From NCBI GenBank assembly GCA_002451855.1, contig DKDS01000048.1, positions 18,535-67,226 of the forward strand: a stretch of 48,692 nucleotides of DNA, in the 5' to 3' direction. The translations under genes were made by a program, and so were the position numbers. This document shows positions 1 to 11,615 of this stretch, piece after piece; position 1 is the first letter of the stretch, and each line of letters starts with the position of its first letter. The notes under the pieces are model-generated. The model did no database searches. It saw only the letters and a list, made by a program, of their open reading frames with translations, and was not told the origin of the DNA. Origin of the DNA: Ruminococcaceae bacterium UBA6842 (GTDB lineage Bacteria; Bacillota; Clostridia; Oscillospirales; Acutalibacteraceae).

Positions 1-2527
1 ATTTTAAAAACTCGAACGATTCATCAGCAAGACCGCGTTTTTCAGCACTCTTAAGTATTATGGCACCGGATACTGTACTTGAAACAGTAACATTTGTCCC
101 TTTTTCAGTTACTGTAGCAGGCATAGAGGCTATGGTCCACCGTCCGGACAGTTCAGGTGCAACAGTAGCCAAGGTTTGATAATAAGAATAACTCGTTATA
201 AGTATCGGCATCTCTCCGGAACGGAAACGAGAAGTCAAGTCAAAGTCAGTGTCCAATCCATAGTCTCGGTAAAGACTTACCCAATTCATAAATGCAGATT
301 TTGCACCGGTGCTGTTAAAATTAACTTCTGTCAAATCATCATTAAAATATTTATCTCCGGTTTGCAAAAGTAAAGTTTCAAAGAAACTTATTCCTGTTGA
401 AATACCCGCGTTTGTACTATCGCTCTCCCTAATACCTACAGTAAAATTGTTCTTCTGAAGCTCACAAAGCACCTTGTAAAATTCATTCCATGTTCTCGGC
501 ACGCTAAGACCCAACTTTGCTAAGATGTCTGTGCGATAAAACATCATTTGAAAGTCCTGCGTTACCGGCATAGCATATATTTTGTTCTTATAAGTGAATG
601 GTATCCATGAAGATTCCGAGAACTGTTCGAAGAATTCATTATCCTGTGAATACAGATAATCCGTCAGGTCAAGCACCTGTCCTCTCAAAGCAAGATCAAT
701 CGGAACATCTTGAGTAACAGATACCGAAACATCCGGTTCACAACCCGCCAAAATCGCTTCTGTGAGTGTGGTTGTTGAAATTTTAAAATCCACCGCTATA
801 CCGGATTGCGGAACAAACGAATTATCAATTATCTGTTTCACAGATTGGGCTTGGTCTCTTCCTAAAGTGCACCAAACGGTTATAGCCTTTTGGCTTGTGT
901 CAGTGAAATTGTAATCATTGGAAAATGATGAAACAAATCTTTTGAATTCAAATGACAGGGACTTAAAAAAGCCACAATTTGCTTTCGGCTCTTCGCTTGC
1001 GGGAGACATTAAATAAATACTGTCCAATTCAAGCGGCAGATTGTTAAAATCATAAGTTTCGCCCGCATAAGACTCAATATAGCTTTTAAAAGTAGAAAGT
1101 TCGGAAACTATAAGGCGCGGGTTCGCTGTAAAGCTATCAATCAGTCTCACAAATTTTTGTATAAAGAATATTTTTGGATTTTCTTCCCCCATTATATTTG
1201 ATATACCCTCAGATATTCCCGACATTAATTTGCGGGCAGCAGATAATTGATCAATCAAATCGGGAATTTCTTTTTGTATATTGTAATCTCTCTCGGAATC
1301 CGGCGTAGCACTTGTGACCATTATTATCGATTGATATATATCATTAAGATTGTTTACCGAACTGTATATATCACTCAATATCGTAGCCATCGGACCCGTA
1401 GTAGCCTTTAAGGTAATAATGTCACCCGGCTTCAAGAAAATACGGTAAGGTTCGTTGTCCCCGAAGGTTGATATTTGCCAATCCCCGTCATATTTAAATC
1501 CGATACTTTTTGCTTCTTTAAAAGGCAATTCGTTGTTTATGTATAAAGTACGGTAAGTAGTGGTTCCAACCGTACCGTTCTGTTTTGCCCTAAAGCGAAG
1601 AATATATAAACCCGCCTCAGCATCATCCGGCACCTTCCATGACGCCCACTGACCGTTAGTCTGCCAATAATCTTTTCCGAAGGAATTTACTACCCTTCTT
1701 GAAGGATCGGACGGTGACATTCCCGCATTAGTACTGTCGATAGTAGCGGCTAATGTACTCTCACTTTTTTCAAATGCGTCCTCCGCCTCAATAATGCAGT
1801 TTTCATCAACATCGTTATATGAACTGTTGGATTCTAAGTATGTCTCATAATTCTGAACAGAGGAATCATATCTCCCCAAAACAATTTTGCTTACATAAAG
1901 CGATTCTGCCACCCGTTTAATCTTAAGAGTATGAGAACCTTTTTCCAAATACACACGATACGGCTCCTCATATAGTCCTATGCTATTTTCTGCCCAGTCA
2001 AAGCGTTCATGAAACGCCTCTGTCTGTTCATCTCTTATTTCATCGCCGTTTTCATCTTTAACTCTTTCGCTGTATTTGTTGACCCATATGCGCGAGAATG
2101 ATACTTCATCCAGTTCCTCATAGGGTAATTCATCATCAAAATTAAAGGAGAGTCTTATGGTTGACGAAGATTCGGCAATCGGTTCATAATTCAATCCAAT
2201 ATTATAAAATCCGGACTCAGAAACATCAAATTTAAAGTCGCAATAAGAATTATTTTTATCAACAGCCACTCTTTTATCGTTTATGCTTTTAGATATATCC
2301 TCGGATTTTTCCTGAAGTATTAAATTTTCGGTTGTAATATCTATACTATCTTGCGAAAAATGAGCATCTTTGTGCTCAGATAAATACGCCGAGTAATTTT
2401 TACCCGACTCATATGTAACTGCGGTGTAAGCCGTTTTTTCATTTTCTGCCTTGACATTTAAGCATGAAAATGCAGACACAGTCATCAGGGCAGCAATTAA
2501 AACAGCCGAAATTTTCTTATTATACAA
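1..2527 (-). CDS. Partial large secreted lipoprotein-type ABC extracellular solute-binding protein with a long N-terminal extension; the 3' end runs off the window
   Basis: It is absent from the ORF track because no stop codon lies inside the window. My translation of the minus strand stays open in one frame from TTG at 2527 (GGTGGG 6 nt upstream) to position 2. I checked the frame at three places. The N-terminus, (M)YNKKISAVLIAALMTVSAFSC, is a signal peptide with a lipobox-like cysteine. The last part, FRSGEMPILITSYSYYQTLATVAPELSGRWTIASMP, resembles family-1 solute-binding proteins. Confidence 0.6.
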   Translation of the reverse strand, partial: MYNKKISAVLIAALMTVSAFSCLNVKAENEKTAYTAVTYESGKNYSAYLSEHKDAHFSQDSIDITTENLILQEKSEDISKSINDKRVAVDKNNSYCDFKFDVSESGFYNIGLNYEPIAESSSTIRLSFNFDDELPYEELDEVSFSRIWVNKYSERVKDENGDEIRDEQTEAFHERFDWAENSIGLYEEPYRVYLEKGSHTLKIKRVAESLYVSKIVLGRYDSSVQNYETYLESNSSYNDVDENCIIEAEDAFEKSESTLAATIDSTNAGMSPSDPSRRVVNSFGKDYWQTNGQWASWKVPDDAEAGLYILRFRAKQNGTVGTTTYRTLYINNELPFKEAKSIGFKYDGDWQISTFGDNEPYRIFLKPGDIITLKATTGPMATILSDIYSSVNNLNDIYQSIIMVTSATPDSERDYNIQKEIPDLIDQLSAARKLMSGISEGISNIMGEENPKIFFIQKFVRLIDSFTANPRLIVSELSTFKSYIESYAGETYDFNNLPLELDSIYLMSPASEEPKANCGFFKSLSFEFKRFVSSFSNDYNFTDTSQKAITVWCTLGRDQAQSVKQIIDNSFVPQSGIAVDFKISTTTLTEAILAGCEPDVSVSVTQDVPIDLALRGQVLDLTDYLYSQDNEFFEQFSESSWIPFTYKNKIYAMPVTQDFQMMFYRTDILAKLGLSVPRTWNEFYKVLCELQKNNFTVGIRESDSTNAGISTGISFFETLLLQTGDKYFNDDLTEVNFNSTGAKSAFMNWVSLYRDYGLDTDFDLTSRFRSGEMPILITSYSYYQTLATVAPELSGRWTIASMPATVTEKGTNVTVSSTVSGAIILKSAEKRGLADESFEFLK

Positions 2528-2844
2528 AATGAACCCACCTACCGATTTCATACAATTAAAACTCAGACTAACAAGGGAAATTTCCTCTTTTGCATAAGCA
2601 AGAAACACTAACCAATTTTTGCCTTTTAATAGTCGAAACGCTTAAAATATTGCTTATGCAAATCGTTTTGCTTAATGTATATTATACATATCTATTGCAA
2701 ATTTGTCAATGTTTTTATTATAAAAAATGTGTATTTTTATGGTTTTTAAATTTCTTTGCTGTGTTTTTATAAATATATATTGTTTTTTATTTGGCGGTGT
2801 GTTATTATCTTGTAAATTTAATATTATATTCAGGGGGAAATAAA

Positions 2845-4515
2845 ATGGAGAATTTTTATAATATACCGACATTAAATCCCGCAAAGGGAGCCGGTGAAGA
2901 AAATTTGTCAATTATAAGGCGGGCAATTAATATCGCCAAACTCAACTCATTCAACGGAATTAAGCTTCCGTCCGGCGAATATGAAATATACAGCAATGAA
3001 TCACTAAAACTATACAAAGATATGCTTGACGGTAAATTTTCTCCGCTTGATTACGATAGAATTAAAGATTTAGCCACCGAAAATATTGCTTTCAAGCTTA
3101 ACGGTTTCGAGGACTTTATTTTCAGCGGAGATAACACTATACTGAAATTTGATGGCCTTATAGCCCCATTTGATATAGATAATTGCAAAAGAATGCGTTT
3201 AAGAAGAATAACGATCGACTGGTTGCATATCCCGTATTTTACTGCAAATATTTTGTCGATAATTGAAAACAACATTCAAATTATGCCTATCGACAGCCGA
3301 ATTTCCGGCAATGAACCGATAGTCTCTATTCAAAACACAGATATTAATAGCGGCGTTCCCGGCGGCAATGCAGTCTTTGAAAATGTTTCCAATATTAAGA
3401 ATTACGATGGAAAATACAGTCTTTCGTGCGATGCGGCAGAACAATTTGCCACTTCAGATACACTGATATTAAGACATATTTATAATTTTGCTCCCGCAAT
3501 ACATATATATCGCTCTACAAATATCACGATTGAAGATGTGACTGTGAAAGCAGCCGCTGGTATGGGTATAATAGGTCAAAAAGTCAACAATTTAAACTTG
3601 TACAGAGTAGCTGTAAAACCGGGTAAAGGAAGGGCTATGTCCACAAACACAGATGCTGTACATCTAATAAACTGCAGTGGCTTAATAAATATAAACACTT
3701 GTCATTTTGAGAGTTCTGGAGACGATGCGTTAAATATTCACGGATTCTACCATATTGTAGAAAAAATCGCAAATTCCCGCATTTATACAAAGCAACCTCA
3801 AAATTCACAAGATTATATTGATGTGGTTTTTGACAAAGACCACGAAATCGAATTTGTAAATTCGACCACCCTTATCCCACATTATAAGGCAAAAATTATT
3901 AACAGCGGTTTCGACAAGAATGAAGATATGTATTTTATAGAATTATCTCCCGATGATATAAAACATATTAAAATCGGAGAATATATTTCAAGTGCCACCG
4001 AAATTGCCGCATTGAATTTTGAAAACTGCGTTGTAAAAAATCTAAGAGGTCGAGGTATGCTTATTCAAACCCGTAATGTAAAGGTAAGAAATAACTTATT
4101 CGACTCTTGCACCGGAGAAGCCATACATATATGCACTGAAGCCGGTTGGTATGAAAGCGGCTCAACAGAAAACATAAAGATTTATGAAAACCGATTTATA
4201 AATTGCGGCTTCGGAAAAACAAAATACTGCGATGCCGTTGCAGTTGTCACTTCAACAGATGCACCGATTCAAACCCCCGGTGTGCATAAAGACATAAAGA
4301 TTTTTGGAAACAAGATTATTGGTAAAAGCAAGCCTTTCCTCATCACATGTGCGGACGGAGTAGAAATTATTAACAATGAAATAGCATGTACAAAAGAATG
4401 CGAGGTAAAAGAAAGCATAAACATCGTAATAAAGAACAATAAAAAATTAAAATATGACGATGCGAATTCGCACAGTTTTATTAAAAAATCTATTGATGTA
4501 TCCGAAAAAAGATAA
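2845..4515 (+). CDS. Right-handed parallel beta-helix (pectin-lyase fold) protein, possibly a glycoside hydrolase; no signal peptide
   Basis: This is the track ORF 2791..4515. I prefer the ATG at 2845 because it follows a GGGGGA RBS. Motifs STNTDAVHLINC and SSGDDALNIHG, plus repeated ~25-aa beta-helix turns, resemble the NTDG/GDD signatures of GH28-like enzymes. Confidence 0.55.
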   Translation: MENFYNIPTLNPAKGAGEENLSIIRRAINIAKLNSFNGIKLPSGEYEIYSNESLKLYKDMLDGKFSPLDYDRIKDLATENIAFKLNGFEDFIFSGDNTILKFDGLIAPFDIDNCKRMRLRRITIDWLHIPYFTANILSIIENNIQIMPIDSRISGNEPIVSIQNTDINSGVPGGNAVFENVSNIKNYDGKYSLSCDAAEQFATSDTLILRHIYNFAPAIHIYRSTNITIEDVTVKAAAGMGIIGQKVNNLNLYRVAVKPGKGRAMSTNTDAVHLINCSGLININTCHFESSGDDALNIHGFYHIVEKIANSRIYTKQPQNSQDYIDVVFDKDHEIEFVNSTTLIPHYKAKIINSGFDKNEDMYFIELSPDDIKHIKIGEYISSATEIAALNFENCVVKNLRGRGMLIQTRNVKVRNNLFDSCTGEAIHICTEAGWYESGSTENIKIYENRFINCGFGKTKYCDAVAVVTSTDAPIQTPGVHKDIKIFGNKIIGKSKPFLITCADGVEIINNEIACTKECEVKESINIVIKNNKKLKYDDANSHSFIKKSIDVSEKR

Positions 4516-4587
4516 AGCTAATGCTGTTTAAAAAACAAATAGTTTTTTATGCTATTTAAAATTATAAGATAAAAATTTTTTCAGCAC

Positions 4588-4627
4588 CTCAAAAGCCCTT
4601 AAATAAAGGCTTTGGGGCGCTTTTTTG
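4588..4627 (+). terminator. Probable intrinsic terminator after the beta-helix gene
   Basis: An imperfect stem, CCTCAAAAGCCC...GGGCTTTGGGG, is followed by CGCTTTTTTG. Confidence 0.35.
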
Positions 4628-4660
4628 TTGCCCGAATCCAAAAAAATCCCCAAAATTTAC

Positions 4661-4688
4661 TTGACGGAATTTTGTTAATAAATATAAT
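4661..4688 (+). promoter_or_regulatory. Sigma-A-type promoter for the radical-SAM gene
   Basis: TTGACG (4661-4666), a 16-nt spacer, then TATAAT (4683-4688). Confidence 0.45.
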
Positions 4689-4807
4689 TTCAAGGCAAAG
4701 TTAAGAACCGCTGAATTTTCGATGTGGGAGGTGATGTATTTCAATGCGTCACGGCGTTTTTTACTATGAAAAATATGAAAAAATTTATTTATAAAGGAGG
4801 TCATAGT

Positions 4808-5947
4808 ATGACTATTAAAAAATTTAATACGCCTACGGTTTCAAGCAAGATAGGTATATGCGGTCTACCTTTAAGGGTAGATACCTATTCGGTATGCTCA
4901 TTCGGTTGCACATACTGTTTTGCTAATAACAGAGAAATTATGAAAGCCTCGGATTTTAAGGTAGCAAACTTAAATCACCTTAGGAAAACTCTCGAGCGTA
5001 TACTGGACAAACACGAAATTGATGAAAACAGTCTTTTGGATAAGCTCATTTCGGAAGGTATTACCTGGCACTGCGGAGGTCTGTGCGACCCGTTTATGCC
5101 ATGCGAGGAAAAATATCATATAACCTCGCAGATGATAGATATTTGCAACAGGTACGGTATATCAATACTCTTCTCAACTAAGGGAAACAGCGTTTACGGT
5201 GCAGACATCCGACCTGATTTACACAGCTTTCAATTAAGCGTATCCAATATATCCGACAATAAGCAGTGGGAGCCTAATGTTCCGAGTATGGAAAGCAGGT
5301 ATAGGTTTTACCGCGAATTAAAATCCAAAGGCTTTAAGGTGGGTATCCGAATACAGCCGTTTATACCTGGTATAACCGATACGGATATTATAGACCTGTT
5401 CCACGACGCTGACTTTTTTACAATAGAATCCGTTAAAATAGTTCCGCAGGATAAGGAGTACAGGCAAAAGCTTACAGAGCTGCTTAATATACCTATAAGC
5501 GACTTTAAGTTTTCGGGACTTTACAACCTAAAGTCCGAATTAAAGCTTAAGTATTATAAGCCCTTTATTGAAAAGCTTGAGCTTTACAATATCCCGTTCA
5601 GCATTGCGGATAATGACTTAAGGAGTATAAGCAAATCCAAATGCTGCTGCGGAGATGTACTTATTAAAAAATCAACGGACTTCAATACAACGGCGTTGCT
5701 TAAAAAATACGGCAGTGATTACAGCTTACAAAATGTTTATGATGAAATAGGCTGTTACGGAAATTGCAGTTGTAAAAGCTTATTTGCAAGCAACAGGCAA
5801 AAGGATGTTATAACCGTTTTGGACTTTTTTAAGTCAAACATAAACAGTATTAAAAACCCTGCCGGAAAACCTTTTCAGTACATACCCGAAAACGACAGCT
5901 TTTATAAGGGTTACATTCATACCAATCCTGAGAGTATACCTCAGTAA
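4808..5947 (+). CDS. Radical SAM protein of the SplB / DNA-photolyase-like type (COG1533-like)
   Basis: CSFGCTYCFAN is a CxxxCxxC cluster motif preceded by LRVDTYSV. The later GGLCDPFMP, FSTKG and IQPFIPGITD segments match the layout of that family. I prefer the ATG at 4808 after AAAGGAGG; the track start at 4724 is upstream and in frame. Confidence 0.65.
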   Translation: MTIKKFNTPTVSSKIGICGLPLRVDTYSVCSFGCTYCFANNREIMKASDFKVANLNHLRKTLERILDKHEIDENSLLDKLISEGITWHCGGLCDPFMPCEEKYHITSQMIDICNRYGISILFSTKGNSVYGADIRPDLHSFQLSVSNISDNKQWEPNVPSMESRYRFYRELKSKGFKVGIRIQPFIPGITDTDIIDLFHDADFFTIESVKIVPQDKEYRQKLTELLNIPISDFKFSGLYNLKSELKLKYYKPFIEKLELYNIPFSIADNDLRSISKSKCCCGDVLIKKSTDFNTTALLKKYGSDYSLQNVYDEIGCYGNCSCKSLFASNRQKDVITVLDFFKSNINSIKNPAGKPFQYIPENDSFYKGYIHTNPESIPQ

Positions 5948-6165
5948 ACCTATTCTCGGGCAGACATGAAAAAAGCTTAAAGTAGTTATTGTTTAAGACG
6001 GCTTCATTTTGTTTACACAAAATAAATCCGTTCAATAAAGATTACAGAGGACCGGAAAGCAAAAATGCCGCAAGCCCCTTAAACAGCGGATTTGCGGAAC
6101 TGCGGGATTTCAAAAATTTAAACAAACTCGTAGCAAAATTTAAACAAAGAAGGGTGGTGACAGCG

Positions 6166-6606
6166 ATGAAACAGGAAACCACATATGGAAAGAAGGTGCA
6201 TTTTGAAACCAAAAAATACAGTGTTCTTGATAAAGCTTCGGGTGAAATAACAGAGCGTAATTTTATAGAGAAGGTAATATCTCCCGACCTGATTGACATA
6301 GGCTTTGTAAAGCTATGGAAGGGTTATCTTACCGAATTTCTTAATAACTGCAACAGGCAGGACTGTAAGATACTTGCTTTTCTTTTATCTAACACAAACA
6401 GAAGCAACTGCATAGAAATAACCCAGCGTGAAATAGCAAGGCTGCTGGGGCTATCCCTGCCGACTGTAAACAAATCCTTAGCCCGTCTTAAAAACCTCAA
6501 CATAATCCGCAATTCAAGGCAGCTTATAATGTTAAACCCAAACTTTATAGCCTACGGTAAATACAAAACAAGGAGCAGACTGCTTGAAATTTATGAAAAA
6601 TTATAA
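6166..6606 (+). CDS. RepL-like winged-helix replication/maintenance protein
   Basis: KILAFLLSNTNRSNCIEITQREIARLLGLSLPTVNKSLARLKNLNIIR...LNPNFIAYGK has the typical wHTH layout of Firmicute plasmid RepL. I prefer the ATG at 6166, which is in frame with the track ORF 5989..6606. Confidence 0.5.
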   Translation: MKQETTYGKKVHFETKKYSVLDKASGEITERNFIEKVISPDLIDIGFVKLWKGYLTEFLNNCNRQDCKILAFLLSNTNRSNCIEITQREIARLLGLSLPTVNKSLARLKNLNIIRNSRQLIMLNPNFIAYGKYKTRSRLLEIYEKL

Positions 6607-6617
6607 TCCGATATGTG

Positions 6618-6659
6618 AAGCAAGGCAACCGCATTTTTGCGGTTGCCTTGCTTGGTTTT
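6618..6659 (+). terminator. Strong intrinsic terminator between convergent genes
   Basis: A perfect 15-bp stem, AAGCAAGGCAACCGC (6618-6632) pairing with GCGGTTGCCTTGCTT (6639-6653), has a 6-nt loop and is followed by GGTTTTA. Confidence 0.7.
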
Positions 6660-6681
6660 AAAAAACGAATAAAACAAAATA

Positions 6682-7527
6682 TTATTTATTAAACCTTTGT
6701 CTTTCGAGAATACACTCGGTAACACGGTCTGCAATCAGCCCTCTGTCGCGCTCGGCGTAAAATTCAAGCATCGGTTTAAGCTCTGCCGTAATTTCCTTCT
6801 CGGTAAACTGCGGAATTTTCAGTTGTTTGCCGAAAAGCGCTCTCGCAGTGTTCATCTGACGGTTAAATGTTGTACCGAACGGACGGGCAATTACCGACTT
6901 GATAAGTCCTTTAGGCTCAATATCCATAGGCGAAAACTGCGTGTTAGAAAGCAATCCCGCACCGTTATCAAATATCGGGCAGTAATCAAAGCTGCCGTTT
7001 TTTTCAAGCACAGCAATATTGTTAAGGTGTCGGTCGTCATTAAGAAACAGCGCGTCCGCTTCAAACAAAAGGGTCAAATATTCGGGGAATTCCTTAAGAC
7101 CCGTAAACTCCGCCGTTGCCGTTGCCAAGTATTCTATCCGCTTTTTATCGCTCGGCAGACTTGTCAATTTATCTTTAAGGGAAACTCCGAGCCGTCTTGA
7201 AAAAAGATGGCTCAGCGTAATTATCGACTGACCGCTTTTTAAAAAGCTCTCGCTTGAACATCCGGTTCTGTCTCTGCCGTGAACATTAAGTCTTTCCATT
7301 TGATATTTCGCGAAAGAAAACGGTGTGTCATCACTTATATTACTTTTTTCAAGCAGTTTTGAAATAAAGGTCTCGGCAAGCGCCTCGTAACCGAATTGAT
7401 CTAATTTGTACCATTTATTCGTCTCTTTATCGAACCATTTTTCCTGATTTCCCTTCGAGGAGGTTTCCGCTACCTTTTCATTGCTTACAAGCTTTACGGT
7501 CATTTTATTACCTCTGTTTTTATCCAT
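6682..7527 (-). CDS. HipA_C-type serine/threonine kinase with the kinase core only (HipT-like)
   Basis: It carries a SKGNQEKW P-loop-like motif, the catalytic LNDDRHLNNIAV motif and a PIFDNGAGL Mg-binding motif. An alternative ATG at 7503 forms an ATGA overlap with the upstream stop (7500-7502) and has an AGAGG RBS. Confidence 0.7.
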   Translation of the reverse strand: MDKNRGNKMTVKLVSNEKVAETSSKGNQEKWFDKETNKWYKLDQFGYEALAETFISKLLEKSNISDDTPFSFAKYQMERLNVHGRDRTGCSSESFLKSGQSIITLSHLFSRRLGVSLKDKLTSLPSDKKRIEYLATATAEFTGLKEFPEYLTLLFEADALFLNDDRHLNNIAVLEKNGSFDYCPIFDNGAGLLSNTQFSPMDIEPKGLIKSVIARPFGTTFNRQMNTARALFGKQLKIPQFTEKEITAELKPMLEFYAERDRGLIADRVTECILERQRFNK

Positions 7528-8033
7528 TGCTCATCCTCCGCCATTCTGCCGCCTGTTTTCTTTATTATTTCAAGCGGCTCGTACCTGTCAAGTCCCAATG
7601 CCTCCAGATATTCTCTTATACCGCTGCGGTTCTTAGGAACACAGCGTTCCTCTAAAAAGCCCTCAAAATCCCTCCAATCGGGAAATAAATTATTTCCAAA
7701 TGCGGTTTTTACTATATTATCGGTATAATTCTTTACGGAAAGGGACTTATCGCTTAAATCTGCGCATATTTCCGTACACAGTACATTTTTGTCATAAAAC
7801 GCCATATGCAAAAGCTTATGACCCATCGCCTTTTTCTTAACCGAAAATTCTTTAAACGAAAGGTGAGGTGAGATTACGATTTTTTCTCCGTCATAACAAA
7901 GCTCTGCTCCGTTATCGTTAAGCTTTAATTCCGTCACCCACCTTGTAGGCAGTGAAATCTTATATGTTTTGGCGTTTCCTCCGGCAGTGCCGCCGGCTGT
8001 CCCGACAATAATTTTCGCGTTTCGTTTTTCCAT
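7500..8033 (-). CDS. Fusion of an AbrB/SpoVT-type DNA-binding domain with a HipA-N-terminal-like (HipS-like) domain
   Basis: The N-terminal YKISLPTRWVTELKLNDNGAELCYDGEKIVISP looks like a swapped-hairpin AbrB fold. The C-terminal FLEERCVPKNRSGIREYLEALGLDRYEPLEIIKKTGGRMAEDEQWIK resembles the N-terminal region of single-chain Firmicute HipA-like proteins (R.iP..R ... D.yWI). Confidence 0.55.
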   Translation of the reverse strand: MEKRNAKIIVGTAGGTAGGNAKTYKISLPTRWVTELKLNDNGAELCYDGEKIVISPHLSFKEFSVKKKAMGHKLLHMAFYDKNVLCTEICADLSDKSLSVKNYTDNIVKTAFGNNLFPDWRDFEGFLEERCVPKNRSGIREYLEALGLDRYEPLEIIKKTGGRMAEDEQWIKTEVIK

Positions 8034-8042
8034 ACCATCACC

Positions 8043-8086
8043 ACGAATATATTACCATATTCGTAACGAATAGTCAATGTTTTAAA
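8043..8086 (-). promoter_or_regulatory. Promoter with overlapping operator half-sites for the AbrB-HipS/HipT-like operon
   Basis: On the minus strand: TTGACT (8077-8072), a 17-nt spacer, then TGG-TAATAT (-10 at 8054-8049). Three ATTCGT/ACGAAT half-sites interleave with it, including the 8-bp-arm palindrome ACGAATAT-N6-ATATTCGT (8043-8064). Confidence 0.5.
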
Positions 8087-8136
8087 AGCTGTCCCGCGTC
8101 ATCAGGCGGTTCTGTTCAGTCTATGTAATAAATTTT

Positions 8137-8232
8137 TTAATAACACTCGGGAACACCAAGGTCGTTAGCGGCTTCCATCTTAAAACGGTTAAGGGCTTCG
8201 CGAGCCTCAGGTACTGCATTCTTGTTTGCCAT
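8137..8232 (-). pseudogene. Truncated alpha/beta-type small acid-soluble spore protein (N-terminal 31 codons only)
   Basis: It is below the ORF-track size cutoff. A GGAGAG RBS precedes MANKNAVPEAREALNRFKMEAANDLGVPECY*. This matches the first conserved SASP block of clostridial SASPs (LVPEAK..L..FK.EVA.E.GVP). The second block (GSVGGEM..R) is missing in every frame downstream. Confidence 0.45.
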
Positions 8233-8460
8233 GATTTTTTCTCTCCTATAAAAATTTCTCTTTGCGTTTGCATTAGTATTTTGCGTTGCAAAACAAATAA
8301 TATTATAGGTAAATTATGCGTTTTTTGTAATTTTTTATAAATTCGGAGGCCTCATAGCTTCGGGAGTCACACTCGGACACATTCTGCGCAAACTCAACCG
8401 CAGATTTCGATTAAATTTCTAATTTTTATAACATAAATTTTCACCACCTTAGAATATTAA

Positions 8461-8502
8461 AAATAAAAAAATCCTGTCCTTATTTCAAAATAAAAACAGG
8501 AT
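8461..8502 (-). terminator. Intrinsic terminator of the FAD-dehydrogenase operon
   Basis: On the minus strand, the stem ATCCTGT/ACAGGAT (8471-8502) is followed by a run of U (A-run at 8461-8470 on the plus strand). Confidence 0.5.
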
Positions 8503-8579: not shown

Positions 8580-8927
8580 CTACTCTATATTCTTTGTTGC
8601 AATAATATCAGTTCCGAATACATTTTCTATTACCGTATCGCCTATATGTATCGGAGCGGCAACACTTTTCGCGCGAATAAGCTTCATAGCGTCAAAAATT
8701 TTATCTTTAGGTATCGGATTTTCCGTCTTGACGCTTACCATAATATCCTCACGGTTATCCACCCTGACTGATGAAGTTACGGTACGGGTAGGGTTGGTAC
8801 ATTCGTCTATGGCGTATTGCTTGCCTTTAGGGCAGCTGTTGCCCGTAACGGTTATATTATTGCCGTTAATTTCCACTTTGAGCGCACAGCCGCGCGGACA
8901 AATTATACAGGTCATATCTCTTGTCAT
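8580..8927 (-). CDS. DUF1667 domain protein, the small subunit-like partner of the FAD oxidoreductases
   Basis: MTCIICPRGCALKVE...GNSCPKGKQYA is the cysteine pattern typical of DUF1667. The start forms an ATGA overlap with the upstream gene's stop. Confidence 0.7.
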   Translation of the reverse strand: MTRDMTCIICPRGCALKVEINGNNITVTGNSCPKGKQYAIDECTNPTRTVTSSVRVDNREDIMVSVKTENPIPKDKIFDAMKLIRAKSVAAPIHIGDTVIENVFGTDIIATKNIE

Positions 8928-10174
8928 TTTACTTCCTCCAAGCTGACTGTTATTTCTTCATTTGCCAAAGCCAATTTTTCCGGTTTCAATACTATCTTTT
9001 CCAGTTCTCCGGGCGCCGCTTTCAGCCGCACGGCGGTTGCAAGAACTTTGTTTCCCGAGCTTACGGTATATTTAACCTTTCCGAACGGCTGCGATACCCG
9101 CAGGAACAATGCTACATCATTTTTTTCGTCTGCGTTTATCCGTTGCGGCAGAACATAACGCACGCCGTTACCTGCCCTTGTGATTACCGTTTTGCCGCCA
9201 TTTGCACCGTTCAGTACATAGCTTGCGGCGCCTTTGCCCGCAATTTCAGCCTCGTCCGACACATAATCCACAAGGTCATGCACCTGCAAAACATTACCGC
9301 AGGCGAAAATACCCTCTGTCTCGGTCTGACGGTTTTCGTCAACCTTAGCCCCGCTTGTTATATTATCTATCGGAATTTCGGTATTTCGGGTCAATTCGTT
9401 TTCGGGAATAAGACCGACGGAAAGCAACAGAGTATCGCACGGTATGTAACGCTTTGTTTCCTCAATTATATTGCGTCTTTCATCCACCTTTGCAACAGTT
9501 ACTCCCTCTACTCTGTCTTTACCGTGAATTTCCGCCACGGTAGTGGATAAATAAAGCGGTATACCGAAATCCTCAAGACACTGAACAATATTTCTTTTAA
9601 GTCCGCCGGAATACGGCATAAGCTCGCATACCGCCTCAACCTTTGCGCCCTCAAGCGACATACGGCGTGCCATAATAAGTCCTATATCTCCCGAACCTAA
9701 TATAACGACCCTCTTACCGACCGCATAACCCTCGCAGTTCATCAGCTTTTGCGCCGTGCCCGCGCTGTAAACTCCTGCCGGACGGGTTCCGGCAGTGTTG
9801 AGCGCACCGCGGCTGCGCTCGCGGCAGCCCATCGCAAGAATTATAGCCTTTGCCTTAATTTTAAGCAGACCTGCGGTGCTTTGCGCCGTTACAATTTTAT
9901 CGGGTGAAATATCCGTTACCATGGTTTCGCAGTACGTCTTTATTCCGCGCTCCGCCACCTTTTCAGCGTAGACCGCCGCGTATTCGGGACCTGTAAGCTC
10001 TTTCCCCAACTTATGAAGTCCAAAGCCGTTGTGAATACACTGCTTTAAAATTCCGCCGGGCATTTCCTCTCGCTCTAAAATGCAAACATCGGTTACGCCG
10101 CTGTCATATGCCGCGGCTGCCGCCGCCATTCCCGCGGGTCCGCCGCCTATTACTACTATATCGTGATTTATCAT
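8924..10174 (-). CDS. NAD(P)/FAD-dependent oxidoreductase of the pyridine nucleotide-disulfide oxidoreductase type
   Basis: It has two Rossmann motifs, VVIGGGPAGMAAA and VVILGSGDIGLIMA. It sits in the usual three-gene arrangement with a GlpA-like gene and DUF1667. Confidence 0.7.
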   Translation of the reverse strand: MINHDIVVIGGGPAGMAAAAAAYDSGVTDVCILEREEMPGGILKQCIHNGFGLHKLGKELTGPEYAAVYAEKVAERGIKTYCETMVTDISPDKIVTAQSTAGLLKIKAKAIILAMGCRERSRGALNTAGTRPAGVYSAGTAQKLMNCEGYAVGKRVVILGSGDIGLIMARRMSLEGAKVEAVCELMPYSGGLKRNIVQCLEDFGIPLYLSTTVAEIHGKDRVEGVTVAKVDERRNIIEETKRYIPCDTLLLSVGLIPENELTRNTEIPIDNITSGAKVDENRQTETEGIFACGNVLQVHDLVDYVSDEAEIAGKGAASYVLNGANGGKTVITRAGNGVRYVLPQRINADEKNDVALFLRVSQPFGKVKYTVSSGNKVLATAVRLKAAPGELEKIVLKPEKLALANEEITVSLEEVK

Positions 10175-10184
10175 TTCTTTTCCC

Positions 10185-11615
10185 TCACAGTCTGCCTGTC
10201 ACAGTATTCGATTTTCCGCCTTTTTTGGTTATCTCGGTCATAGGTTTGCCCGTTTCATTTTCAATAAGCCGCATTACATAAGGCATACAGAAGCCGCCCT
10301 GACATCTTCCCATTCCCGAACGGGTACGGCGTTTTACCCCATCAACATCAGTTGCAGCAGGGTTGCGGTGCAGTACGTCCAATATTTCACCCTCACTCAC
10401 CGTCTCGCAGCGGCATATAATTCTGCCGTATGCGGGATTTTTCTTTATATATTCATCCTTTTCTTCATCACTCATTTTTCTGAAAGCGTGAGTATCCTCG
10501 CGATTACCGTTAAAATCGGGGTTCTCGGTCAATTTAAGTCCGCTTTTTTCAAGCAGCTCCACAATATATTCCGCAATAGCGGCAGAAGAGGAAAGTCCCG
10601 GCGAATCTATCGCCGCGGCGTGTATAAGTCCCTTTACCTTGTTCGATTCCTTTATAATAAAATCGCCGTTTTTCTCTGACGCACGCACGCCTGAAAAAGA
10701 GGTTATTACCGCACGGGTGTTAACGCTCGGTACGCTTTTCTTTGCAAGCTCGGCAACAGTCTTAAGCCCATCCGCCGTAGTTTCGGTATTATCGGGTGTT
10801 TCCACCCTTTCGGCAGTAGGTCCTAAAAGAAGATTGCCGTCTGCCGTGGGAGTTACCAAAATGCCCTTACCGTTGGCAGTCGGCACTTGGAATATCGTGT
10901 GCGATACAGTCTTGCCTTCATTTTTATCAAGCAACATATATTCGCCGGCGCGGGGTATTATTTCAAAGAATTTATCCCCTGCCATTTCGGCTATTTTATC
11001 CGCAAATCCGCCGGCGCAGTTTACAAGATACCGCGCGGTTACTTGTCTGCCGTCCGCTGAGCATATTCTGAAGCCGTTCTCTGCCCTTACTATTGCCGTA
11101 ACCTCGTAATTCGTCCGAAGCTCGGCGCCGTTATCCATAGCATTGCCCATAGCCGCAATAGTCAGAGCATAGGGGCAGATTATTCCGGCATTAGTCACAA
11201 GCAGCGCTTTTGTAACCTTCTCCGACAAATTGCTTTCAAGCCGCCTTGCTTCTGTTCCGGAAAGAATATCCATACCCTTTATTCCGTTTTTCAGTCCGCG
11301 CGCATAAAGCTCATCTATAACCGCGTCCTCTTCTTTATTAAACGCAAGCACCATTGAACCGTTGTTTTTGCAAGGCACATTAAGCTCCTTCGCCGCCTTA
11401 TATAAAAGCGGCACACCCTTCGCATTCAGTTCCGCCTTAAGTGTTCCCGGTTCGGGGTCAAAGCCACCGTGAATTATTCCGCTGTTTGCTTTGCCGGCAC
11501 CCATTGCAACATCGTTTTCCTTTTCAAGCACACACACGGAAAGATTATACCTCGCAAGTTCCCTTGCGGTTAATGCGCCCACAACACCTGCTCCTATAAT
11601 TACTACATCAAACAT
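10185..11615 (-). CDS. FAD-dependent glycerol-3-phosphate dehydrogenase/oxidase-type oxidoreductase with a BFD-like [2Fe-2S] domain
   Basis: VVIIGAGVVGALTAREL is a dinucleotide fold. The C-terminal ICRCETVSEGEI...GMGRCQGGFC is a BFD-like motif. The glpP context supports the call. Confidence 0.7.
   Translation of the reverse strand: MFDVVIIGAGVVGALTARELARYNLSVCVLEKENDVAMGAGKANSGIIHGGFDPEPGTLKAELNAKGVPLLYKAAKELNVPCKNNGSMVLAFNKEEDAVIDELYARGLKNGIKGMDILSGTEARRLESNLSEKVTKALLVTNAGIICPYALTIAAMGNAMDNGAELRTNYEVTAIVRAENGFRICSADGRQVTARYLVNCAGGFADKIAEMAGDKFFEIIPRAGEYMLLDKNEGKTVSHTIFQVPTANGKGILVTPTADGNLLLGPTAERVETPDNTETTADGLKTVAELAKKSVPSVNTRAVITSFSGVRASEKNGDFIIKESNKVKGLIHAAAIDSPGLSSSAAIAEYIVELLEKSGLKLTENPDFNGNREDTHAFRKMSDEEKDEYIKKNPAYGRIICRCETVSEGEILDVLHRNPAATDVDGVKRRTRSGMGRCQGGFCMPYVMRLIENETGKPMTEITKKGGKSNTVTGRL

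Follow-up and report, generated by a model that had tools for sequence, protein, structure and literature searches.

An AbrB-headed, HipS-like protein and a short HipA-superfamily kinase form a probable autoregulated module in Clostridia

The window analysed here, a stretch of 48,692 nucleotides from Ruminococcaceae bacterium UBA6842 (contig DKDS01000048.1), carries on its minus strand a pair of overlapping genes. The upstream gene encodes a protein of 177 amino acids (aa), called the partner in what follows, and the downstream gene encodes a protein of 273 aa, called the kinase. By analogy with HipBST, the three-gene system (hipB, hipS, hipT) of Escherichia coli O127:H6 and Legionella pneumophila, we consider the pair most likely to be an autoregulated two-gene toxin–antitoxin or defence module. 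The features at the locus are as follows.

7500..8033, minus strand: partner gene (177 aa plus stop), the proposed autorepressor and antitoxin
7860..8033, minus strand: AbrB/MazE/SpoVT-type swapped-hairpin domain of the partner, residues ~1-58, including the GGT...KTYK segment
7503..7820, minus strand: HipS-like domain of the partner, residues ~72-177, with three beta strands, three helices and a final strand
7500..7503, minus strand: ATGA stop/start overlap, a putative translational coupling
6682..7503, minus strand: kinase gene (273 aa plus stop), a short HipA-superfamily Ser/Thr kinase core and the proposed toxin
8049..8077, minus strand: sigma-70-type promoter, with -35 TTGACT at 8077-8072, a 17-nucleotide spacer and a TG-extended -10 TAATAT at 8054-8049 (TGgTAATAT)
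8059..8071, minus strand: operator palindrome ATTCG-TTA-CGAAT, which fills the promoter spacer (candidate probe sequence TATTCGTTACGAATA)
8043..8048, minus strand: third ATTCGT copy, 3' of the -10, lineage-specific and probably outside the conserved operator
6618..6653, no strand: hairpin with a perfect 16-bp stem between the kinase gene and a convergent RepL-like gene, likely a shared terminator

The two open reading frames (ORFs), at 8033-7500 and 7503-6682, lie in different frames and are joined by ATGA just as the original prediction described; an in-frame ATG at 7527 offers the kinase an alternative start and a length of 281 aa. All the motifs quoted in that prediction are in the translations. 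EDEQWIK is part of an AEDEQWIK motif near the end of the partner, which closes with ...AEDEQWIKTEVIK, and SKGNQEKW, DRHLNN and FDNG occupy residues 16-23, 157-162 and 178-181 of the 273-aa kinase. A GGTGAT ribosome-binding site, followed by the ATG of the partner, lies 3' of the TAATAT -10. The result is a compact bicistronic operon with a DNA-binding-type partner and an operator within the promoter, the layout characteristic of type II toxin–antitoxin systems.

The hexamer ATTCGT or its complement ACGAAT occurs at 8071-8066, 8064-8059 and 8048-8043. Since there are only 24 copies in the 48.7-kb window, three within 29 nucleotides form a real cluster. Of the 79 loci with upstream sequence whose promoter regions we compared, 76 match TTGNNN-ATTCG-N3-CGAAT-...-TAnnnT exactly and 75 have 17 nucleotides between TTGNNN and TAnnnT; the flanks outside the promoter are unalignable. 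The promoter had been predicted to be interleaved with three half-sites. The promoter and the two half-sites in its spacer prove to be conserved, but the third half-site (8048-8043) occurs in none of the 79 other loci, nor in further loci inspected. Seen in the window alone among the loci inspected, it was rejected as a part of the conserved operator.

The palindrome changes together with the protein. ATTGG replaces ATTCG in all five distinct proteins that have Asn at residue 16 and/or 23 of the AbrB head (L090 and L035, then L097, L098 and L099, the last three fetched specifically to test the covariation), and it was seen at none of the loci whose protein is without Asn16/Asn23. The right arm is CCAAT in three of the five and CCAAC in one, and CGAAT is kept in L035. 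L090 and L098 are close relatives; hence there are fewer than five independent events. With shared ancestry ignored, a split of this kind between Asn and ATTGG appears very unlikely to arise by chance. The covariation argues that the AbrB-like head reads the palindrome, and it is strong comparative evidence that the head would do so in a symmetrical manner, over the very spacer that RNA polymerase has to occupy. Relatives of the partner with an XRE-type head, an HTH_7 head or no head are without the ATTCG palindrome and have other palindromes instead. The autoregulated layout proposed at the outset is thus supported more strongly than before.

Structure modelling supports an AbrB/MazE-fold domain at the N-terminus of the partner. 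In the AlphaFold2 model (predicted local distance difference test, pLDDT, 90.1), residues 8-56 have the beta-beta-alpha-beta-beta order of the AbrB/MazE swapped hairpin. Foldseek aligns the head with AbrB (9a4b_A) at a root-mean-square deviation (rmsd) of 1.4 A over 37 columns, and among the viral models of BFVD it finds SymE/SpoVT/AbrB entries with probability 0.99-1.0 and template modelling (TM) scores of 0.66-0.70. The SpoVT_AbrB profile match expected of this protein (PF04014) was obtained for 24/33 and 30/50 partner relatives, with a best E of 1.8e-6, but the window partner itself gave no match at E<=10. The similarity to AbrB is thus visible only across the family and in the model, with the window protein sub-threshold. 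Partner relatives form 991 clusters at E<=1e-3, nearly all of them 176-192 aa long.

The C-terminal domain of ~100 aa appears to be HipS-like, an assignment that is supported, not proven, on the basis of predicted structure and gene context without significant sequence similarity. Its best non-spurious Foldseek match is the N-terminal region of Shewanella HipA (4pu3_A; probability 0.97, 90 columns, rmsd 3.7 A, E 0.094), and against E. coli HipS (7ab3_E) the TM score normalised by HipS is 0.64 (rmsd 3.3 A, E 0.76). The domain carries an invariant signature, FLExRCxPxxR...YxPxxIIxKTxGxMxxDxxW, and W120 and W170 are conserved in the partner. Pfam searches with 50 partner relatives found neither Couple_hipA nor any other family for this domain, and NCBIfam was likewise empty. 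The partner had been described as joining an AbrB segment to a HipA-type N-domain; the AbrB fold and the structural matches to HipA and HipS bear this out, but the second domain has no significant sequence similarity to back it.

Judged by predicted fold and by motifs, the downstream protein is confirmed as a HipA-superfamily kinase core. Foldseek matches its AlphaFold2 model (pLDDT 82.6) first to Helicobacter pylori CtkA (3akk; E 1e-5, TM about 0.54-0.58), then to Shewanella HipA (4pu5; 2.7e-4) and then to HipT of Legionella and E. coli (7vkb, 8ezs, 7ab5). The Gly-rich loop (GxQxK), the catalytic DxHxxN and the Mg-binding Asp motifs, as defined from Gerdes 2021 and general knowledge of HipA, are all present. 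In an alignment of 34 kinase sequences S15-S16-K-G-N-Q-E-K, D156-D-R-H-L-N-N and F178-D-N-G are invariant. The loop lies at residues 14-22 of 273, with the invariant S15 and S16 beside it, which indicates that this kinase, like HipT and other short Hip kinases, has no counterpart of the N-subdomain 1 found in full-length HipA (PMC8262856). Weak HipA_C matches fall over the catalytic loop in 30 of 34 kinase relatives (best E 0.0059, none near the threshold). Together with the Foldseek matches and the invariant motifs, they bear out the proposal of a kinase-core-only HipA-type gene. Searches of the kinase gave no match in NCBIfam and chance matches only in PDB sequence profiles; the PADLOC model PDC-M03A matches it at 8.5e-11. 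The kinase family comprises 3057 clusters at E<=1e-3, with lengths of 268-283 aa. Relatives are mostly of 272-274 aa, starting at the overlap codon, and the most populous cluster (P0123, 873 member sequences) is the 281-aa form.

The pairing of the two genes is conserved. The kinase gene lies directly downstream of the partner in 80 of 80 related loci, over partner identities from 94% down to 45%, in hosts that include Acutalibacteraceae, Oscillospiraceae, Ruminococcaceae, Lachnospiraceae, Flintibacter and Huintestinicola. ATGA or GTGA are the commonest junctions, and the remainder are mostly TAATG or TGATG. At least 490 places in species-representative genomes, mostly of gut and rumen Clostridia, encode a relative of the partner. 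In the closest relative of the window module, an uncultured Ruminococcaceae genome assembly (L001), ATCA replaces ATGA by a G>C change (4528-4540). The two ORFs are kept in two frames; the partner gains two residues, and the only start left to the kinase is the upstream ATG, which yields the 281-aa form. The survey of homologues suggested earlier thus finds the split conserved, and we read it as ancient and the pairing as near-obligatory.

The HipS-like domain also occurs outside the AbrB-headed protein. A scan of 1.84 billion representative proteins with the partner gave 709 matches, and a search with the domain profile gave 1349. The domain stands alone (102-112 aa), behind a resolvase-type HTH_7 helix-turn-helix (HTH), behind an XRE-type HTH_3, behind AbrB and, once, fused to a kinase. 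A kinase homologue adjoins the HipS-like gene in nearly every locus inspected. The XRE-headed variant (L082, L083) is directly upstream of a kinase 36% identical to that of the window, and the head-less variant (L084), which integrases adjoin, is directly upstream of one 37% identical. The HTH_7-headed variant (L085) precedes a 272-aa product that matches PDC-M03A, among SPbeta-like Yom genes. An HTH-headed variant on the E. eligens megaplasmid is also directly upstream of a kinase (domain match 7e-39), which falls in the same range of 36-37% identity to the window kinase. The exception is a Pseudobutyrivibrio isolate (L081) that keeps the XRE-type partner and has lost the kinase, in a locus otherwise the same as L082/L083. 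In a Bacilli plasmid relative the kinase comes first, and its 134-aa partner retains no more of the HipS-like domain than the helical half. We take this distribution to be that of a mobile adaptor.

The fusion to a kinase, P0317, is a single chain of 374 aa with the HipS-like domain at its N-terminus and a remainder 32% identical to the window kinase. It is a singleton on a 1.5-kb contig and the only such fusion among 349 domain-carrying proteins fetched. The domain had been likened to the N-terminal region of single-chain kinases; the fusion shows that such a relative exists, but it was found only once.

In a separate observation, the XRE-headed module of Pseudobutyrivibrio (L082/L083) interrupts an operon for a zinc ABC transporter, lying between znuA and the gene of the ABC ATPase (znuC).

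We think it probable that the pair is an autoregulated two-gene kinase module on HipBST logic, in which DNA-binding and kinase-binding functions reside on one polypeptide. The AbrB head, as a dimer, would bind ATTCG-N3-CGAAT in the spacer between -35 and -10 and so repress the operon. The C-terminal domain of the partner, equivalent to a detached HipA N-subdomain 1 (HipS), would dock on the kinase and keep it inactive, and the ATGA overlap would couple translation so that no kinase is made without partner. Were the partner lost, titrated or degraded, whether because the element is lost or because a phage infects, the freed kinase would phosphorylate an essential target and arrest growth. By analogy with HipA and HipT, that target could be an aminoacyl-tRNA synthetase. 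Variable genomic contexts, the partner-only remnant in Pseudobutyrivibrio and relatives on plasmids and phage contigs are traits like those of toxin–antitoxin systems.

Several observations weigh against this mechanism or against the assignments beneath it. The Foldseek E-values for the HipS-like domain are weak (0.09-0.8). PDB profile searches with the whole partner and with the domain returned chance matches only, and hhalign of the domain profile against the N-terminus of E. coli HipA (an approximate sequence) gave a probability of 0.3%, which is not significant. The Pfam match to HipA_C (PF07804) that had been expected of the kinase recurs weakly in the family, but in the window protein it reaches 13.5 bits (E 0.056), below the gathering threshold of 30.5 bits. 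Conservation of the kinase family is unusually strong, with a mean column identity of 79%. The counterpart of the HipS-like domain in HipA is part of an active enzyme, and a natural fusion exists in P0317; thus the domain need not be inhibitory. Many loci are flanked by housekeeping genes, which, like the strong conservation of the kinase, would also fit a cellular regulatory role, and 2.9 million viral contigs (IMG/VR) hold only 4 relatives.

One alternative keeps the same architecture and changes the role. The pair would serve in abortive-infection defence, a phage product displacing or destroying the partner and freeing the kinase. Such a role is compatible with the favoured mechanism and differs from it at the level of function. 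Arguing for it, both proteins match PDC-M03, a PADLOC phage-defence candidate (Payne et al., bioRxiv 10.1101/2024.01.29.577857) that was found within loci of BREX, DISARM or type I restriction-modification systems; the resolvase-HTH variant sits among SPbeta-like Yom genes, the head-less variant adjoins integrases, and a defence role has been proposed for other short Hip kinases (Gerdes 2021, PMC8262856). Counter to this, PDC-M03 is only a candidate, its similarity is distant, and in the relative identified here the two genes come in the reverse order. The AbrB-type loci inspected have their housekeeping flanks with no known defence systems nearby, and matches in viral contigs are scarce. The distant similarity to PDC-M03 hints at defence, which we regard as possible, with the balance leaning against it.

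In a second alternative, the main rival to the favoured mechanism, the genes would encode a functional kinase in two pieces. The HipS-like domain would be the missing N-subdomain, needed for folding, substrate binding or activity, and, much as HipB does for HipA, the AbrB head would anchor the assembled enzyme at the promoter of its own genes. The product would then be a regulatory kinase, possibly linked to sporulation, and no poison. The equivalent subdomain of single-chain HipA does sit in an active enzyme (Gerdes 2021, PMC8262856; Baerentsen 2023, PMC10627512). The natural fusion, the very strong conservation of the kinase, the Clostridial hosts and the position of several loci beside sporulation genes (spoVA, and those for small acid-soluble spore proteins, SASPs) also fit. 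The cassette, however, enters unrelated contexts and brings its own promoter, its DNA-binding head is freely swapped, a partner-only remnant exists and relatives occur on plasmids and phage contigs. Detached HipS is an antitoxin in both HipBST systems studied (PMC10627512, PMC9325769), and P0317 is one protein on a short contig. We judge a split functional kinase to be unlikely.

A recent pseudogene, in which a point mutation at 7500-7503 broke a single-chain kinase gene, can claim P0317 as its one point in favour and is exceedingly improbable, given that the ORFs are in different frames, that the same two genes with coupled junctions and no uninterrupted ORF recur in all 80 loci across several Clostridial families at 45-94% identity, that family lengths are tight (176-192 aa and 268-283 aa), and that L001, mutated at the junction and without ATGA, still has two ORFs in two frames.

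If the favoured mechanism is right, its implications reach beyond this locus. Public records name these genes 'hypothetical protein', or, for the HTH-headed variants, 'helix-turn-helix domain-containing protein' or 'putative transcriptional regulator'. The kinases extend the Hip superfamily into a clade that Pfam thresholds miss. A single protein whose DNA-binding head is exchangeable can combine a putative HipS-type neutraliser with a DNA-binding autoregulator, and Thr16/Thr23 with ATTCG versus Asn16/Asn23 with ATTGG provides a specificity pair for the reading of DNA by the AbrB fold. Should the kinase be toxic, it would be a candidate for a role in persistence, addiction or abortive infection among abundant commensals. 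A broader proposal, which we put forward tentatively and with confidence somewhat short of even, is that the CtkA/HipA-like short kinases have a large, unannotated branch in Firmicutes, for which the detachable HipS-like subdomain is a universal adaptor. Used bare or acquired by DNA-binding heads of at least three unrelated kinds (AbrB, XRE-HTH and resolvase-type HTH), the subdomain would give rise to a combinatorial system of antitoxins not covered by the ten Hip organisations on record. The same proposal would place the AbrB-type cassette at the tip of a mobile segment whose insertions, in either orientation, fall at a single exact position within alpha/beta-type SASP genes.

The surroundings of the module bear on its possible mobility. 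Only L001 has the same neighbours, and the contexts of other relatives vary. The G+C content is 29-41% over positions 1-8500 of the window, against 47-52% for the glycerol-3-phosphate dehydrogenase-type operon (DAO, Pyr_redox, DUF1667) at 8580-11615. This is consistent with the low-GC left part being a horizontally acquired island that extends past the start of the window.

To the left the module has as neighbours a RepL-like replication protein and proteins without a Pfam family. The former (5989-6606, plus strand) is a winged-helix protein of the kind used in Firmicute plasmid replication. Its gene faces that of the kinase in convergent orientation, its L001 counterpart has 81% identity, and its presence points to a segment that is integrated or came from a plasmid. 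The hairpin between the two convergent genes (6618-6653) has a folding free energy (dG) of -31.2 kcal/mol and a z of -6.7, with 0 of 200 shuffles equally stable, and is likely a terminator common to both. Further left are plus-strand ORFs at 2791-4515 (574 aa) and 4724-5947 (407 aa), neither with a Pfam family. The 407-aa ORF matches phrog_13321 at 3e-16, gives a weak 'DNA repair photolyase' PHROG match and contains a CxxxCxxC-like motif, CSFGCTYC, by which it may be a radical-SAM enzyme. The first ~2.8 kb of the window (1-2790) has no ORF of at least 80 aa on either strand and may be degraded or non-coding island DNA. An Rfam scan of the window found no RNA family.

Just upstream of the module promoter is a truncated alpha/beta-type SASP gene (8137-8232, minus strand). 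Codons 1-28 (MANKNAVPEAREALNRFKMEAANDLGV) are kept and PECY-stop follows; the C-terminal part was not found in the window. At no fewer than nine other loci the same segment, which is conserved (…TGTTCCCGAGTGTTATTAAAA…ATACATAGACTnAAnnGAACCnCT…), is joined instead to SASP codons 25-63 in the opposite orientation. SASP remnants lie upstream of the module in L006, L013, L015, L016, L017, L021 and L090/L091, and about 1.1 kb upstream in L018. The breakpoint is always at (D/E)(L/V)GV codons. In L026 an intact SASP gene (5487-5675) is convergent with the kinase. These junctions suggest that ssp genes were entered at one precise site, in either orientation, by the cassette or by an element bearing it at its tip. 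A search for further copies of the junction 18-mer (GTTCCCGAGTGTTATTAA) returned none from the window or the fetched loci, and viral contigs had no match, so that the 18-mer gives no boundary for the element. In one lineage (L093-L096) the module is directly followed by an unrelated 272-aa eukaryotic-like Pkinase (PF00069; 7359-8177) and GNAT acetyltransferases, in a spoVA neighbourhood.

Compared with known systems, the module shares parts with several. Its closest counterpart by structure of the kinase is CtkA (JHP0940) of Helicobacter pylori (PDB 3akk/3akj/3akl), which has a HipA-like Ser/Thr kinase fold and a similar size, but identity to the window kinase is only 12-14%, with no sequence-profile match. 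CtkA is described as a secreted proinflammatory kinase, and not as the toxin of a toxin–antitoxin pair.

PDC-M03 is likewise a two-gene cassette. Its A models match the kinase as given above, and a B model matches 43 residues (126-168) in the helical half of the HipS-like domain at 9e-5. These matches are weak and partial, however, PDC-M03 has kinase-first order against partner-first in the window, and it has no AbrB domain. The window pair is accordingly outside PDC-M03 as defined by its A and B models in A-then-B order, and the 134-aa partner of the Bacilli plasmid relative matched no PDC-M03B model.

The MazE, VapB-AbrB class and SymE-fold antitoxins share with the partner an N-terminal swapped-hairpin fold and a palindromic operator overlapping the promoter. 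They differ in that the putative neutralising part here is a folded ~100-aa HipS-like domain in place of a short disordered tail, that the cognate toxin is a kinase, and that the head of the partner has an extra Gly-rich loop (GTAGGTAGG) between its first two strands.

Among Hip systems, Gerdes et al. (2021) listed ten organisations, none using AbrB (PMC8262856). The short Hip kinase modules of that survey (hipJS, hipIN, hipMP; clade XI) resemble the window pair in having core-only kinases of ~280-320 aa with HipS-like or DNA-binding putative antitoxins, and in some of them a HipS-like domain is joined to another domain (HIRAN). Their putative antitoxins are encoded downstream of the kinase, whereas the window partner is upstream, and the window kinase is too divergent for the Pfam HipA_C threshold. 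The literature searched gave no description of an architecture combining HipS, HipA and AbrB. This agrees with the original claim of novelty, which must nevertheless be tempered by the distant relation to PDC-M03.

HipBST itself offers the nearest functional parallel. Both systems have a short kinase without N-subdomain 1, with an N-terminal Gly-rich loop and an adjacent Ser; a separate upstream polypeptide that structurally resembles N-subdomain 1; a DNA-binding component; and tightly packed, overlapping genes. In HipBST, HipS blocks the Gly-rich loop through Trp65 (PMC10627512). The window system has two genes against three, its DNA binder is of AbrB/MazE fold and covalently fused to the HipS-like domain where HipB is a separate HTH protein, its proteins have no significant sequence similarity to HipS or HipT, and its kinase is structurally nearer to CtkA. 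Having only two genes, a head of AbrB type and proteins that lack sequence homology, the module falls outside HipBST, yet by analogy it would work like HipBST, one polypeptide taking the parts of both HipB and HipS.

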